Of a stretch of DNA of 29,438 nt, positions 2 through 19,250 are shown in pieces; the stretch's first letter is position 1; every line of letters starts with the position of its first letter. The DNA is from a virus (taxonomy: Duplodnaviria > Caudoviricetes), in the IMG/VR virus record IMGVR_UViG_3300030372_003823, positions 1-29,438 of that record. The stretch is one strand, 5' to 3'. A program made the translations under genes and the position numbers. The notes under the pieces are model-generated. The model worked only from the letters and a program-made list of their open reading frames with translations. It did not search any database and was not told the origin of the DNA.

Positions 2-1150
2 AAAACTTCTTGTCTTTTCGTTGTATGCCCGATGATACTGCCGTAGGGATTCCAATCCCGTGTGGCAGGCGGCCTTATCAAACCAGCAGCGCGGTATCAG
101 CAGCTGCGCGGCATGAATACCATCTTCAAGGGGCAGCTTCGGAACAACCCGAAAATTTAATCCTAAATCCCAGGCAATCTCTCTTCTCGATTTACCACTA
201 CCCAATTCACGAACATCTATGTCGTGCGGTGCATTGTGTGTACCGTATAGGTATCCTTTTTGGTTGAGAACGGAACAGTAGTGGGGTAAGCCCTCATTCC
301 TATTCTCATAATAATCCATTACCTGGACGGCTCTCCCTACGGTCTGTGTAAACCAGATCGCGGTACTATCTCCAATTCCTAAATCCCACCAGGTATCTAC
401 CTTAACTGAGGGATCATAGGGAACCTTCGTAATTCTTCCAGCATCCAGAGCATCTTGCATTTCCTTACCAAAGATCGCGCCAGGCACATTCGCATTCCAG
501 CTACACTCAAACTCCTGGGCATACTGATCCGCAGACATCATCTTCTGCGCGGCCTCAAGTTCCTCTTTTGCTACTATCCCCGTTTCGCTGGCTTTGTAGA
601 CTGCCGTGATCCAATCGGTCTGCCCCTTCGCTTCTTCGTAGAGGTCAAAGAATGCGTTATGTCCTTTTGGGGTTCCGATGAAGACACACCAAGTCTTCCT
701 ATCAGCCGTTGAACGATCCGATAAGGCAGGCCTAATAACCTCAGGAAATAAGCTCTCAGGCATCTGAGAGTACTCATCAAGTATTGCACCATCTAAAAAT
801 ATTCCTCTTAAACTGTCAGGTGTCTCACCACCCAGTAAATTAATCCGCGCACCATTTGGAAGATCACACCGCAATTCAGTTTCGTGAAATCTCACTCCTG
901 GTATCTTTCCAGAAAAATCCTTTAGGTAATCCCAAGCTACACTTTTGGCCTGCCGATAGGTGGGGGCGATATATGCGTATCTGGGGTTCTTCTTCTGGTT
1001 AAGAATAGCGTCCCGTAAGACATGATTTATGGCCCATACAGTCTTGCCAAACCTTCTGTGTGCTACAACGACACCCCATCGCTTTTGCATCATCTGGTGG
1101 TGCAGTTTCGCTTGTATAGGGCGAGGTGCGTAAGGTATCTCTATTTTCAT
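2..1150 (-). CDS. terL: Terminase large subunit (3' end runs off the window; absent from the supplied ORF track)
   Basis: Hand translation from ATG at 1150: MKIEIPYAPRPIQAKLH... It contains Walker A (AHRRFGKT), YIAPTYRQAK, Walker B (LRGIFLDGAILDEY), motif III (FIGTPKG) and the nuclease-domain motif WDLGIGDSTAIWF. No stop codon before the window edge. Confidence 0.95.
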   Translation of the reverse strand, partial: MKIEIPYAPRPIQAKLHHQMMQKRWGVVVAHRRFGKTVWAINHVLRDAILNQKKNPRYAYIAPTYRQAKSVAWDYLKDFSGKIPGVRFHETELRCDLPNGARINLLGGETPDSLRGIFLDGAILDEYSQMPESLFPEVIRPALSDRSTADRKTWCVFIGTPKGHNAFFDLYEEAKGQTDWITAVYKASETGIVAKEELEAAQKMMSADQYAQEFECSWNANVPGAIFGKEMQDALDAGRITKVPYDPSVKVDTWWDLGIGDSTAIWFTQTVGRAVQVMDYYENRNEGLPHYCSVLNQKGYLYGTHNAPHDIDVRELGSGKSRREIAWDLGLNFRVVPKLPLEDGIHAAQLLIPRCWFDKAACHTGLESLRQYHRAYNEKTRSF

Positions 1151-1276
1151 GGTATCCTAAGTGTGTGAGTGTAAGACACTCTCCTCAGAGTATATAAACG
1201 ATATAAGAATCGCGCTCGAATTGGGGCTGGGTGGGGTATGACTTCCCCCTAAAAAAACAAAGTATTTATCTTAAAC

Positions 1277-1373
1277 GTAGCACAAAAAGTAGCACAATCC
1301 CTGGGTGCATTACATAATCTCCAACAATACTTGAGCCTGCTGGATTGCACGCACTAGAATAAAGATCTAGTGG
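1277..1373. other. Second att-like recombination site (arm-type pair plus core with a different 7-bp overlap)
   Basis: GTAGCACAA at 1277-1285 and 1289-1297; ACGCACTAGA-ATAAAGA-TCTAGTGG at 1349-1373. Both elements match attP (10931-10951 and 11048-11072) apart from the spacer and one base between the arm repeats. Confidence 0.75.
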
Positions 1374-1438
1374 GTGGTATGCCTGGTCAGCCTGCCTCGC
1401 GCACGAAGTTGCCGACAGACAGTACACATTATATATAT

Positions 1439-1556: not shown

Positions 1557-1973
1557 TCACTCTGCCGCAACTGCTCCGTCAGCCCAGGTAATGACAATCG
1601 ATTTGTCCTTCTCGACATCTTCTCCACGATTAGTTAATCCTCTCGGTGACATCCTAGCGATCACCCATTTCAATGTATCTATCTTCAGCCTTCTCCTCTG
1701 CACCTCTGCATTGAGGAAACGACTATCCATATTCTCTGGCAAATCCTCATCAACTATATCCAAGCAATCATCCAGCAGCTTCTCCATCTGCATAATCCTG
1801 GCATTGGAATACAAATCCTTTATCTCTTCATTATCTCCCTGGAGAACTGCCTTAGACACAGTATCCCTATGAGGCATATCTGCTGCCTTACAGATAGCAT
1901 TGAGGCTCTCACCATCAGCTAGTCTGAAGGCGATCTTCTCCATGATCTCTTTAGTAACTGTAATTCTTGCCAT
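1557..1973 (-). CDS. terS: Terminase small subunit (Sf6 gp1/P22 gp3-like)
   Basis: N-terminal HTH (IAFRLADGESLNAICKAADMP), RRRLKIDTLKW motif and a C-terminal beta-strand (IVITW). Lies upstream of terL; GAGG RBS. Confidence 0.88.
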   Translation of the reverse strand: MARITVTKEIMEKIAFRLADGESLNAICKAADMPHRDTVSKAVLQGDNEEIKDLYSNARIMQMEKLLDDCLDIVDEDLPENMDSRFLNAEVQRRRLKIDTLKWVIARMSPRGLTNRGEDVEKDKSIVITWADGAVAAE

Positions 1974-5740: not shown

Positions 5741-5850
5741 GAATAGGAACTCTCCAGGAACAATTATCGTTTTGGAAGGGTCAGAAAAGAAGGCTTTGTT
5801 CTTTGACTAATTTAGCCAACCACTGTAAATATGGGGGGCAGAATCAATGA
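5725..5850 (+). CDS. Small ORF, 41 aa, coupled to the repressor (not in track)
   Basis: GGAGGT RBS; MVKNIRIGTLQEQLSFWKGQKRRLCSLTNLANHCKYGGQNQ; stop overlaps the repressor start (ATGA). Confidence 0.5.
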   Translation: MVKNIRIGTLQEQLSFWKGQKRRLCSLTNLANHCKYGGQNQ

Positions 5851-6530
5851 ACGTAATACATCTAAACAACAAGTCGAATAAGCTAATGGGAATAGGAAAT
5901 AACTTAAAAAAGATAGTGAGGGAGAAGGGTGTAGTTGGCAAAAAACTTGCCGATGAAATGAACCTTGCGGCAGAAACGGTGAGCCGCCACATGAACCCTA
6001 AAACCCAAATCTCTATGAAATATGCCCATGAGTATGCTGAAGTTCTGGGAGTAGAGCCAGAGGATATTTATCGTACTCAGGTGCCTCTGGAACTGATTGG
6101 ATCGCTGCAAGAGGATATGCACATAGATTTGTATTCCAAGAGAGAACGATTTGAGTTAGTTGGGCCTATTAACTATCCAGCGCATTACCAGGGAATTCGG
6201 ATTTTCAATTACTTTGCACCGCATGAAGAATCAGTTCTTATCTTTGATGGCGAAACAAAGGCCATTAAGCGCATGGGTGTTATAAGTATTTTGCGTTACC
6301 GAATGAAGAACGGTAAAGAGAATACGGTATTAGGATTTCCATTTGAGCAGGGCTGGGGAGAATATAATATTCGTGTTTCTCAGGCTATGTTTCAGCGAGT
6401 GCAATGGGAAGGCAAAAGAAAGAAGTTAGCGGAGATGTGGATCAAGGATATTGAATTGCTTTGGGCCTCTCCAATATTAACCTCTGTTTATCTGCCATCT
6501 GACATGGATTGTGAGATCATAGAACAATAA
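5847..6530 (+). CDS. CI-like XRE-family repressor
   Basis: N-terminal HTH (NNLKKIVREKG...LADEMNLAAETVSRHMN...YAEVLGVEPEDI) plus a C-terminal beta domain; divergent from cro. Confidence 0.75.
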   Translation: MNVIHLNNKSNKLMGIGNNLKKIVREKGVVGKKLADEMNLAAETVSRHMNPKTQISMKYAHEYAEVLGVEPEDIYRTQVPLELIGSLQEDMHIDLYSKRERFELVGPINYPAHYQGIRIFNYFAPHEESVLIFDGETKAIKRMGVISILRYRMKNGKENTVLGFPFEQGWGEYNIRVSQAMFQRVQWEGKRKKLAEMWIKDIELLWASPILTSVYLPSDMDCEIIEQ

Positions 6531-9368: not shown

Positions 9369-9490
9369 GGTGTGCCGTGCGCCCCATTCTGTGGATCGAT
9401 TTGTGGGTTGAGAGAAAGAGAATTGAAAGATTAAGTAAGACGAAATTTGGAAGGATTTGGTTATGGTTCAGAAGTTACTTTATACGTTAA
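9365..9490 (+). CDS. Small Trp/Arg-rich ORF, 41 aa (not in track)
   Basis: MRCAVRPILWIDLWVERKRIERLSKTKFGRIWLWFRSYFIR; ATGA overlap with the upstream stop. Confidence 0.4.
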   Translation: MRCAVRPILWIDLWVERKRIERLSKTKFGRIWLWFRSYFIR

Positions 9491-9651
9491 GAGAAACCGC
9501 ATCTTTATTTTTTGGAGATGGTAACAACCATTACCAGGTCAAGGTAAAGGAGATGATAACTGAAGGTGAAATTCGAGGGGTGAAAGTTGGCAAGCGACTG
9601 TATGTGCCTGCCAACGAGATTGAAAAACTTAGGATGCAACTAGATGTATAG
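9457..9651 (+). CDS. xis: Excisionase (HTH_17-type)
   Basis: LLYTLRETA...I..GEI.GVKVGKRLYVP..EIE; adjacent to int. Confidence 0.8.
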   Translation: MVMVQKLLYTLRETASLFFGDGNNHYQVKVKEMITEGEIRGVKVGKRLYVPANEIEKLRMQLDV

Positions 9652-10843
9652 GAACTGCGCCAGCCTCTCTCAGTTCTTGCTCATGCTTCACATTTTTTAC
9701 TGGCTGGGCATACTGGGTTCTAGTAAATTCTATAGATGTATGGCCTAGAGTGTTAGCTGCTCTTTCAAAATTCTGATTAAGGTTTGCGATAGCATATGAC
9801 GCATAAAAATGTCTTAATGCTGACCAGGTAATATGTTTAACTCCAGACCTCTTAACAAGTCTTTTCATTAAATCCCTAAAGAAACCTTTACTCAATGCGT
9901 CATGCACAAAGCCAGGAAACACGATGTCGTTTTCAGACACTTTTGGACTAGCTGCTTTATGCAGTCTAAGGAGCCTAACGGCCTCTGGATCGATAGGAAT
10001 TTCTCGCTCTCCCTTATCTGTTTTAGTCCCCTTTTGTCGAATGCGTAGACCACTCTCCTTGTTAGGATCTTTCTCTGTAATGATAGCTTCTTCAACAAAA
10101 ATGTTTGAAGTTTCAAGATCAACATTACCCCAACGAAGGCCTCTTATTTCGGACTGTCGGACACCCGTATTCAGGCCAAGGTGAAAAATTGTTTTGTTGA
10201 AAGGTGTCTCTGTTTCGAGTGCCTGGTAGATATTTGGGAAATCATTTTCTACACAAATATGAAGGTAAGATGTATCGCGATTTACTGCCTTATCTTTGAG
10301 TGCTAATGTGAGGTCTTTGCAAGTCAACGGGTTAGCAGTTCCCCATCCTTTTCTAATCACATATCTGAGAAAAACTTCACAGTAATGCTTCTTCTGTTTT
10401 CTGGTAGAATAGGCAGCATGATCGCGCTTACAATGGGCCTTAAATTCTGTTTGGAAATCCTCAATATTATAGCGGTTAAAAATCTCTGAGCACCGATGAG
10501 AAGAAAGTTTCTGAGAACTAATTTTAAGTGACAGAAACCAGGTAAGAGCATTTAAAGTATTTTCATGGGTGGAGATTGTAATCTCCTCATTATCAAACTT
10601 CTTTTTGAGATTTAATTTATACTGGTGAAAAGCATCTTCGACAGTTACCTTGTCAAACTCATTGACTTTAGTTTTTGCATAATTGCCAGTAAGATAATTT
10701 GCTAAGAGAATAGCAGCTGCTTTCTGAGCCTCTCCTTTTGTTGGGTAGTTTCCATGCCTTATTCCAAGACCAATTCTTTTACCATTTATTACAAAATAAT
10801 CTCTATATTTTTTCACATTTAAGGGTGCGGTTTCTCTCGTCAT
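9629..10843 (-). CDS. int: Tyrosine integrase
   Basis: TGVRQSEIRGLRW (R), TKT (K), SALRH (H-x-x-R with His replaced by Ser), LGH...TRTQY (H, Y). Confidence 0.95.
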   Translation of the reverse strand: MTRETAPLNVKKYRDYFVINGKRIGLGIRHGNYPTKGEAQKAAAILLANYLTGNYAKTKVNEFDKVTVEDAFHQYKLNLKKKFDNEEITISTHENTLNALTWFLSLKISSQKLSSHRCSEIFNRYNIEDFQTEFKAHCKRDHAAYSTRKQKKHYCEVFLRYVIRKGWGTANPLTCKDLTLALKDKAVNRDTSYLHICVENDFPNIYQALETETPFNKTIFHLGLNTGVRQSEIRGLRWGNVDLETSNIFVEEAIITEKDPNKESGLRIRQKGTKTDKGEREIPIDPEAVRLLRLHKAASPKVSENDIVFPGFVHDALSKGFFRDLMKRLVKRSGVKHITWSALRHFYASYAIANLNQNFERAANTLGHTSIEFTRTQYAQPVKNVKHEQELREAGAVPIHLVAS

Positions 10844-10913: not shown

Positions 10914-11025
10914 TAGCTGTGCTATTAAAAGTAGCACAAAAGGTAGCACAAATTAAAAAAATTAGGGGAGGGGTATTGCACTATTTTTCTATAAAGTTAT
11001 AGATAACAAGGAGATATAAACGAAT

Positions 11026-11071
11026 GCGGGTGTGGCGGAATTGGTAGACGCACTAGATTTAGGTTCTAGTG
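11026..11071 (+). pseudogene. 5' half of tRNA-Leu(TAG) (attP identity block, not a complete tRNA)
   Basis: GCGGGTGTGGCGGAATTGGTAGACGCACTAGATTTAGGTTCTAG gives the 5' acceptor strand, D-arm and anticodon arm (TAG). No T-arm or 3' acceptor strand follows. Confidence 0.88.
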
Positions 11072-11084
11072 GAAAGCACTGATC

Positions 11085-11143: not shown

Positions 11144-11200
11144 TTAAAAGGTAGCACAAGGGTAGCACACGATTCTATGCTTTTACCTTGACTTTGAAAG

Positions 11201-16581: not shown

Positions 16582-19250
16582 TATGAAAAAGCCTTTGAAG
16601 GACTGCCAAGCAAGACACTATTGTCTGCCTTTATAAAATAAGGAACGACATCATATTGATTGTTGGTTGAAGATAAAGTTAAGCCACCACCATTAATGCT
16701 TTCGTAGTCACCATGAAGACTAACAGTGCCTGCCGAAGATGATGAAGGTTGAATGAATACAATTACTCCAGTTTGTCCAATCTGTGATGCTTCTGTCGTA
16801 GGAGCCGCTAGAGTGTTAGAGCCACTCGCTAGGGTAATGATAAAATTTTGGTAGGTATCATAGTCTAATACTCCACTTGTTGCAGATAAAGCCGCAGTAT
16901 AAGTGCTAGGTAATTGTGCTTTTGTAAATGTATTCTGTTCATCTGTTTTAACAACGGCAGCCTCTAAACTTACAGCACCACTTGATACTGTAAAATCAGC
17001 AGATGCAAAAGATGCTATACCTTTGTTAGATGTTGTAGCATCCTCACCAGCTATCGTAAGTGTATCTGTCGCTGAAACCGTTGCATCAATACCTTCGCCT
17101 GATGTGACAGTAAGAGTGTTTCCTGATGAAACTGTCTCAGAGGTTGATCCATCGGTTATCGTAAATCCAGTACCATCTGCACCAGATTGAACAAACTGAA
17201 CCCCAACCCCGTCAGTATTCGAAAATGAACCATTGGACACCACATGAGTTACGGGAACCTTTGTATATCCAGATGCGTCTGTTACGGCTCCAGATACCTT
17301 AAAAAGAGCATAGGTTCCAGTGGCACCCTCTTTTGTAACTTGAACATATCCTCTTGCTACAGTATTTGAAACATCATCCCATGACTGCACAAAACCAGAG
17401 ATATCAGCACCAGCATCATCTACATCATCTACATATAAAATTGAAACTGAACTTAGGGTTCCATGATTAAACGCAATCTTGCCTGCCCCAGGATCTGCGT
17501 CAGATGTCGAACTACTCCAAGTCATTGAAAGGCCAGATGTGCCTGCCGTGCTACCCGTGGCTCCCGTAGCCCCAGTGTCACCTTTTAGACCCGTCATTGT
17601 AAAATGGACGGAGAGGATATCACCAGCAGTGAATGTATTGTTACTTACTAAATGCGTAACCGCCAGTTTTACATAACCACTTGCATCGGTGCTTGCTCCA
17701 GAAATCTTAAATCTTGCATAGGTACTAGGATCGTCAGTATCGACTATATGAAGGTATCCTCTAATGGTTGAGGTGCTATCATCCCAAGTTAAGAGATCGG
17801 CAGAGACATCAACTCCATTGGAGTCATTGTCATCAATGTAAATAGCCGTTGCTGACGCATAGGTTCCGTTATTAAATCTTATGTCTCCAGATCCAGGGTC
17901 TGCATCCGAAGTTCCGTTATCGAATGTAAATGTATATCCAGGAACGGCACCATCATTACCACTAGCTGTAAAATGAACTGACAGTTCATCAGCAGCTGAA
18001 AAGGTATTGTTCGATACAATATGAGTAACTGCTAATTTATTATACCCACTTGCATCTGTAGCTGCTCCCGTGATCTTGAATTTTGCATAGGTTGTTTTGT
18101 CGTTAATATCGACAATCTGCAAATATCCCTTTGTACCAGCCGTACTGTCATCCCAGGTAATTGTATCAGCTTGTGTTGAAACTCCGTGCTGGTCTGCATC
18201 ATCAATATAGATTGCAGTCACACTTGAATATGTTCCGTGGTTAAAGGAAATCTCCCCTGCTCCAGGATCGGCATCACTTGTGCCAGTGTCGAATTTATAA
18301 AAATAACCTGGAGAAACTCCATCTTCGCCACTTGCTGCAAAACTTACCCAGACTTTATCATCCGCTGCAAGAGTTCCAGAACCATCGATATAAGTCAGAT
18401 TAACTTTCGTATATCCACTAGCATCGACCAATGCTGAACTTATTTTAAATGTATGCCATGTATCAAGGACACCAGCCTTTGTTAATCTTATCCTTCCTCT
18501 GTTCGTGGGGTTCGCTGAAACATCATCCCATGACTGCACCCAAGCTGAAACATCGGTTCCGTTAAATTCAAGGTCATCAATATACGCGATTGTACTCGAA
18601 CTGATTGTTGCATGGTTGAGTCGAAGGTAACCGCTACCAGGATCGGAATCCGTGGTTGTTGTGCTAAACTTAAACATCGCTGCATCACCGCCTGCTGGGA
18701 GAAAATCAGCAATAGTTGTGAGGTCACCAGAACTATCGAAACCAAGGGTCTTACTTGCTCTAGTTGAAGCATTGTCCACAAATTCAGATGATGAAATCTC
18801 ATTTGTCTTTGAAACCTTAAATGTTCTACCTAATGTTTCTTCATGTTGCTGAACCATAAAAGTTAGCTTATCTAAACTGTTTTCAAATCCAGCGGCTGGG
18901 AAGGGATCGTTGGCAACCATATCCAGACTTTGGGTGAGAGGTTGTTCTCTGAGAAGAATAACTGTTTCACCACTTGCAGGCCGATAGTCCGTTGCTGAAT
19001 AGTGAGCATCGGATGTAGAACCGCCTGCTGAAGTTGTATTGTATTTAAATAAAACCGTGCCGCCCGAAGCCTCACCAGCCCCCGTAACCACATACTCTGT
19101 GTTGAGAGTCTTTGTCGTTTCTGACCCAGTGGAGGCTCTTACAATAACTGTCAGATCTGTATCGGCAAAGATCTTGAAACCATAGGCAAAGCTATGTGTG
19201 CTGCCATCTCCGCTTGCTGATGCTCTGTTTGTCGTACTAGAAACTGTCAT
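16581..19250 (-). CDS. Tail fibre with T7 gp17-like N-terminal adaptor and four ~124-aa repeats
   Basis: GDGST.SF...F.I...DL.V...LDKLT..VQQ adaptor; repeats marked by D.DPG.G, WDD and DASGY.K. Confidence 0.8.

Follow-up and report, generated by a model that had tools for sequence, protein, structure and literature searches.

The stretch of DNA analysed here, hereafter the window, is 29,438 nucleotides long and comes from a temperate podovirus whose record is 85% complete. On its minus strand lie the large terminase gene terL (2..1150, truncated by the window end; Pfam Terminase_6N, PHROG 2; 55% to HTVC010P-type TerL) and the small terminase gene terS (1557..1973; PF20901, E 4e-25), which belongs to an Sf6-like family. 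With a TerS of family PF20901, headful packaging of the Sf6/P22 type, with pac in terS and permuted, redundant ends, is a possibility; we found no termini data for close relatives in the literature. A CI-like repressor gene on the plus strand (5847..6530; PHROG repressor families) provides the temperate context, and the minus strand carries the gene of a tyrosine integrase (Int; 9629..10843; PF00589), convergent with a probable excisionase gene on the plus strand (9457..9651) that shows a weak HTH_17 match under the cut-off (E 4e-4). The phage also has an endolysin gene. Two repeat regions were observed: a 31-base repeat made of shorter units occurs three times at 2653-2773, upstream of a DUF6362 gene, and is a possible replication origin or late-control region, and a tail protein gene at 17458-18281 contains internal repeats of 369–405 bases. 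Rfam searches gave no family at its gathering score, and no whole tRNA was detected by ARAGORN.

The attachment site attP lies next to int. On the plus strand it comprises a left arm pair (10931..10951), an identity block corresponding to the 5' part of a tRNA-Leu gene (11024..11072, matching annotated tRNA-Leu), a core within this fragment (11048-11072) with the anticodon loop (11058-11064) as the overlap, and a right arm pair (11151..11170); by our own reading, the fragment would carry a TAG anticodon, and further anticodon loops were read in the same way as Leu-CAA, Asp, Ala and Glu. An inverted copy of the arm 7-mer at 10918-10924, just left of the left pair, changes with the arm type in relatives. 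This layout is the same as that described for the attP of HTVC028P (PMC8477408), a subgroup II pelagiphage of the HTVC010P type, and the window resembles this subgroup in its gene order, in a TerL identity of 50–55% and in having a tRNA 5' fragment as attP beside int. It is unlike the published description in GC content (41% versus 29–36%), which indicates that the host is probably not SAR11, and in its second site, which is not mentioned in the consulted passages of PMC8477408.

The integrase residues R229, R344/H345, H368 and Y378 are invariant across the family and, together with a separate N-terminal domain that is predicted to bind arm sites, place the window Int among heterobivalent (lambda-type) integrases; the first histidine of the HxxR motif of tyrosine integrases is not retained. 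In the predicted structure, the N-terminal segment forms three strands and a helix and is followed by a flexible linker. The top fold match is the Tn1549 Int, and lambda integrase is also alike.

A second site for this integrase lies between terS and terL. It consists of a tandem arm-type pair (1277..1297, plus strand; two 9-mers with a period of 12) and a core of inverted half-sites (1349..1373, plus strand) around a 7-bp spacer (1359-1365) that starts 62 bp past the last base (1296) of the second 8-mer arm unit. The palindrome profile permits a spacer of 5, 7 or 9, and 7 was chosen from the anticodon loop at attP. The initial annotation had described this as a second integrase site with identical core flanks, a different spacer and a nearly identical arm pair, and each of these statements was borne out: all 18 flanking bases (10+8) at 1349-1373 equal those at 11048-11072, only 3/7 spacer bases are shared with the attP overlap, and 1277-1297 matches 10931-10951 at 20/21 positions. 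Shuffling the window by triplets 500 times yielded core matches of 15/18 and arm matches of 17/21 at best, with an analytic chance expectation of ~5e-7 for each of the observed matches, confirming that the resemblance to attP is far above chance. Contigs from public marine runs also cover the second site, one spanning 1-1592 with 6 differences (X1) and one spanning 710-1592 with 0 differences (X2); either run may be the sample from which the window itself derives.

Inverted core sites around a 7-bp overlap are a feature of att sites used by heterobivalent integrases. Rather than the shape of an attP, in which arms flank the core on either side and the overlap equals that of host attB, the second site has an attL-like shape, with one arm pair and one core. 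It is bracketed on the terL side by a G-rich tract (1222..1236, limits approximate), a candidate packaging signal, and on the terS side by a CG-rich motif (1398..1408), both on the plus strand and both common to integrase-less relatives. No consistent IHF motif, taken as the known consensus, was found between arm and core, which counts against the reading preferred below. In some strains an insert of ~347 bp separates the arm pair from terL (L004:1768-2114; the starts of L015 and L016; run X5), and in other relatives insertions flank the cassette on one side or the other, with none inside it.

Co-variation of the second site with the integrase and attP

Co-variation of the second site with the cognate int and attP, which the initial annotation had named as support for its claim, was found in relatives and proceeds domain by domain. 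Over terS–terL the relative L001 shares 94% identity with the window, but its Int is only 39% identical and its attP is different; at its second site, arms and core are both switched to L001's own type. Differences between the two phages fall at 14/46 motif positions versus 14/360 positions outside (Fisher p 1e-7). The Int of a third phage, L098, is a chimera in which a window-type N-terminus precedes L001-type sequence, and the attP of L098 correspondingly combines window-type arms with an L001-type core. On the same contig (L003), where the arm is cut off, the second-site core is L001-type; L004, 99.9% identical across an overlap of 698 bp, joins this core type to window-type arms at its second site. 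In L006, joined to L097 by 96.5% identity over 2.6 kb, a third arm type is matched.

In a comparison of 17 integrases, sharing an arm motif went with at least 93% identity over about 28 N-terminal residues (12 pairs), even at 36% elsewhere, and pairs with different arms are at most 79% identical over this segment; the arm motif follows Int residues ~7–34. This putative arm-binding segment of ~28 residues was seen to be freely swapped among near-identical or very different integrases (L011-L012, L094-L126), each time with its own arm motif. One exception counts against the general pattern: in L123 the Int is L001-type and the attP core window-type. The lone 7-mer that the initial annotation had pointed out at 1521 is present; however, it occurs in 14 copies in the window and is unchanged in the arm-switched L001, and we rejected it as an arm site because it does not co-vary.

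A profile search for more distant relatives yielded 80 loci, and 16 contigs, window and L001 included, contain both attP and the terS–terL interval. In 14 of these the arm pair at the second site matches the phage's own attP arms (14–16/16 bases; 8 arm types). The other two count against the reading preferred below: L207 shows a partial match, and L193 has a site that is non-cognate yet well formed. (We had considered L207 as a phage without attP; this was rejected when its attP was located at the contig ends.) In a permutation test on 12 representatives, misses included, 0/100,000 permutations reached the observed arm-match score.

An inverted core was present in 25/25 intervals read, with the spacer starting 62 bp past the arm pair in the window clade and 63 bp past it elsewhere, a distance of about six helical turns across DNA that is unrelated between phages. 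A palindromy profile blind to attP, computed on 17 representatives, peaks at an offset of 62–63 bp; it was preferred as a test because a scan for the best inverted repeat broke ties toward 63. The second-site spacers are variable and mostly A/T-rich, have 1–4/7 bases in common with the attP overlap and are never identical to it. The cores of the distant clades match the attP halves more loosely (~8–10/12), a further point against the preferred reading.

The cassette adjoins two dissimilar terminase pairs, in both orientations relative to attP. In a second clade (L193, L200, L206, L210, L221 and L240, with L211 duplicating L210), the terS/terL pair was undetected by the window's queries and the cassette begins at the stop codon of terS and is inverted with respect to attP; the location by terS is therefore conserved and the orientation is not.

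Three phages have an integrase and lack a normal attP. Compared with relatives such as L208, the attP of L212, L214 and L215 has shrunk: a single arm unit is left, together with a half-core-like motif, and the tRNA piece and the arm pair are gone. The second site is retained in L214 and L215, while the L212 contig ends before the slot; in the L215 record (98% complete), the sole arm pair is the one at the second site. The integrases of L214 and L215 are intact with all catalytic motifs (dN 0.155 and dS 0.94 between them), and the shared loss of attP in the three phages is assumed to be older than their divergence. In the remnants (L214:3142-3373, L215:5943-6157, L212:2152-2366), the half-core-like motif is conserved ~50 bp from the single arm, one turn shorter than the arm–core distance at the second site. 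Such a remnant could be an Int operator or a minimal attP, which counts against the idea that Int is kept for the second site. In L208 (10001-11116) the int frame is seemingly broken near its start, and attP has expanded arm arrays.

A dif-like site in integrase-less relatives

Among 80 TerL loci, 73 (L019-L091, about 76% identity; most are partial contigs) have no integrase match; they form 23 clusters at 95% identity. PF00589 was found in 0/8 whole records (89–100% complete) of this group, with both controls positive, and a PHROG scan of 66/120 ORFs from four loci found no integrase, with a 67-residue repressor-like protein in two as the only repressor-like hit. We defined an inner dif motif from PMC3025954 and PMC2731167 and found a dif-like XerC/D site in 66/66 full intervals of these relatives, exact to the motif in 43 and one mismatch away in the remainder, with a XerD arm matching at 9–10/10 positions. 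The same site occurs in 0/23 intervals of the integrase group, against a background of 2 exact sites in 710 kb. With a stricter motif, the site is single-copy in 70/73 loci, the 3 misses starting ≤225 bp from terL, and none was found in 89 integrase-group loci (934 kb). The sites in these relatives thus show the features of XerC/D dif-like sites: a conserved XerD arm, a variable XerC arm, a 6-bp centre, single copy number and a non-coding position.

The dif-like site lies between the G-tract and the CG-rich motif in 66/66 intervals, and the same anchors flank arm and core in 14/14 Int intervals of direct orientation. Of all the evidence that the slot serves recombination, the strongest is that a host recombination site takes the place of a phage one there. 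The dif-like sites occur in both orientations (42 and 24) and have 20 different centres, which vary even inside 95% clusters. XerCD normally requires FtsK or an activator (PMC9226527); no such factor was identified, which counts against the reading preferred below, and a KOPS-like octamer, by its commonly known consensus, occurs in 7/66 integrase-less intervals only. No dif-like site turned up near terL in Venkman, P26218, vB_OspP_OH, Mvi-Yong1342-1 or two spring-water genomes. In the TerL tree, Int-site and dif lineages meet in an unresolved fork, and we therefore claim no number of switches.

A similar arm pair is present in the cultured temperate phage HTVC028P, for which integration was demonstrated by PCR (PMC8477408). 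Its two overlapping 8-mer arm motifs are confined to attP, with 3 and 4 copies, and the terS–terL interval, with 2 of each; a core half-site occurs twice at attP and once between terS and terL. None of these arm and core motifs is present in the lytic HTVC010P, and the arm–core spacing in HTVC028P is not 62–63 bp, a point against the preferred reading. The exact dif inner motif was found in neither phage, and P. ubique is described as lacking dif/Xer (PMC2731167). In six lytic SAR11 phages, an imperfect palindrome whose inner bases resemble dif and whose centre has 6 or 7 bases was observed upstream of the C-tract that precedes terL: HTVC106P (L284:1511-1538), HTVC035P (L285:179-205), Greip (L288 ~1160-1185), Lederberg (L286 ~1197-1222), Skadi-4 (L287 ~1165-1190) and HTVC010P (L093 ~460-490). 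This palindrome could serve a Xer-like enzyme of SAR11 as a target, and we offer it as a lead only. A 125-bp repeat reported for Skadi (PMC10504331) was not taken as evidence on termini, because the ends of the records lie at different genes and the repeat looks like an assembly overlap.

Function of the slot

The sequence comparisons suggest, with a probability of roughly 70%, that the second site is a self-by-self recombination site that would work like P1 loxP. This reading had been put forward in the initial annotation, and it gained from the co-variation, the flip in orientation, the swap for a dif-like site and the persistence of Int and second site beyond attP; the motif at 1521 is the part that fell away. 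As to its role, circularisation of a terminally redundant genome falls just short of an even chance on this evidence, and dimer or concatemer resolution would be unlikely. One chemistry could do both, as that of P1 Cre does. Circularisation is favoured because multimer resolution needs no fixed place, yet three recombinase targets stay just past terS.

In the mechanism we propose, Int would link arm and core at the second site in the manner of lambda attL, and two copies of the site in direct repeat would synapse and cross over within their identical spacers, the distinct spacer separating this reaction from integration and excision. Assuming that the region is duplicated, a site located just past terS would be present at each redundant end of the packaged genome, and the injected linear DNA would then be closed into a circle by site-by-site recombination. 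Processive headful packaging would place two site copies in the first headful only, and we count this against the proposal.

An improbable alternative is that the second site is a non-catalytic dock for Int, acting as a roadblock or switch through which the Int level would govern terL expression or the initiation of packaging, for example by delaying packaging until excision. The terS–terL location in every case would suit such a dock, and co-variation demonstrates binding specificity only; mere binding, however, would require neither an inverted core in fixed phase nor a constant spacer length. Nor does a dock explain why the slot is filled by a dif-like site in relatives without a detected integrase or large CI, or why catalytic motifs are retained in attP-less phages, and promoter-like matches in the terS–terL region occur only at chance level.

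Use of the slot for alternative integration, as a second attP for another host sequence or, in dif carriers, as an IMEX-type attP for host dif, appears quite improbable. Phages do integrate at dif via XerCD (PMC3025954, PMC7062461), and dif centres vary by host species (PMC2731167), which could account for some of the variety, but here the centres differ even among members of one 95%-identity cluster. The XerD arm is canonical in these phages, whereas it is described as degenerate in phage integration sites (PMC3025954), and arms lie on one side only, against pairs on both sides at the attP sites read. A scan with a 17-base core gave 14 viral-contig matches (5 from the family with normal flanks and 9 unrelated) and 0 hybrid junctions. 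In a prophage search, alignment of Int to contigs representing one genome per species retrieved distant integrases only (best 31% over a part) and no host, attL or attR, and a metagenome scan found extra attP regions, with 0/27 checked loci having a contig that reaches terS.

Recombination of the second site with attP, attL or attR across mismatched spacers, by which the 9.7-kb early module would be deleted or inverted, is very improbable. The two sites are in direct orientation in the window, and the closest fold is a Tn1549-type integrase. Tn1549 Int tolerates mismatched overlaps and acts independently of homology; because of this tolerance, its rank as top fold match also counts against the preferred reading. 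Against recombination with attP, the clade-dependent orientation would give products different in kind, the second site outlasts attP, and no joint between the two sites was seen among the 15 listed, with the proviso that contigs drop rare forms. That the site is a functionless relic of duplication or module exchange is hardly credible: the non-cognate L193 and the partial L207 do represent existing mismatched phages or assemblies, but block changes are restricted to the motifs, spacing is fixed across unrelated intervening DNA, and a mutually exclusive dif-like site occupies the slot.

Relation to known systems and implications

The nearest analogue of the second site as a proposed self-recombining site is P1 loxP, whose natural roles lie near pac and in dimer resolution. 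Both systems would use a tyrosine recombinase with two sites of identical spacer. Cre, however, is a dedicated, monovalent recombinase acting on an arm-less site, whereas here a tRNA-targeting integrase that also has attP meets a site with an arm pair and a 7-bp spacer. By this analogy the second site would work like P1 Cre/loxP, yet it is outside that family. The likeness extends to reported activities, in that Cre circularises linear DNA delivered from a phage head between lox sites with identical spacers, recombination between non-identical spacers being restricted (PMC2841073).

Like lambda attL, the second site has one core and two arm sites for a heterobivalent Int, with a 7-bp overlap (PMC4880445). 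On lambda DNA, Int connects core sites with arm sites; two of these bridges form on attL, and recombining partners share the 7-bp overlap (PMC4880445, PMC1807965). Lambda attL is a prophage junction that shares its overlap with attP, whereas the site described here is permanent and additional, lies beside the packaging genes and has a spacer of its own. A reaction between two lambda attL sites (bent-L and straight-L) has reportedly been described in papers by Segall.

The 11-6-11 site of the integrase-less relatives, with its canonical XerD arm, is like XerCD/dif, plasmid Xer sites and the sites of IMEX phages. In the literature consulted, phage dif sites serve filamentous, tailless or ssDNA phages for integration; here, in contrast, the site belongs to a tailed podovirus, lies beside terS and is interchangeable with an Int site. 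In the open literature, covered as titles and the beginnings of abstracts, we found no second integrase site or dif site at tailed-phage terminase genes. What is new here is one slot with a mutually exclusive Int site or dif-like site, together with attP-less integrases.

Taken more widely, the data point tentatively, at slightly less than even odds, to a group of marine podoviruses that reserves a recombination slot at the packaging start to circularise every incoming genome. Temperate members would fill it with a private Int site, so that a single enzyme carries out circle closure followed by integration; in lytic members the slot would hold host dif, and in lytic SAR11 phages possibly a related palindrome. 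Lineages without attP would keep Int for this alone, an intermediate on the way from a lambda-type Int to a Cre-like recombinase.

In temperate phages without cohesive ends, circularisation before integration is usually credited to homologous recombination, with P1 Cre as the textbook exception. The family offers a natural library of swappable arm domains and matching sites, with at least 11 arm motifs, and HTVC028P on HTCC1062 is a cultured phage–host pair in which the idea is directly testable. If true, it would give a phage integrase a second natural job, host XerCD would gain a role in lytic tailed phages, and a route for the origin of Cre-like enzymes would be suggested.
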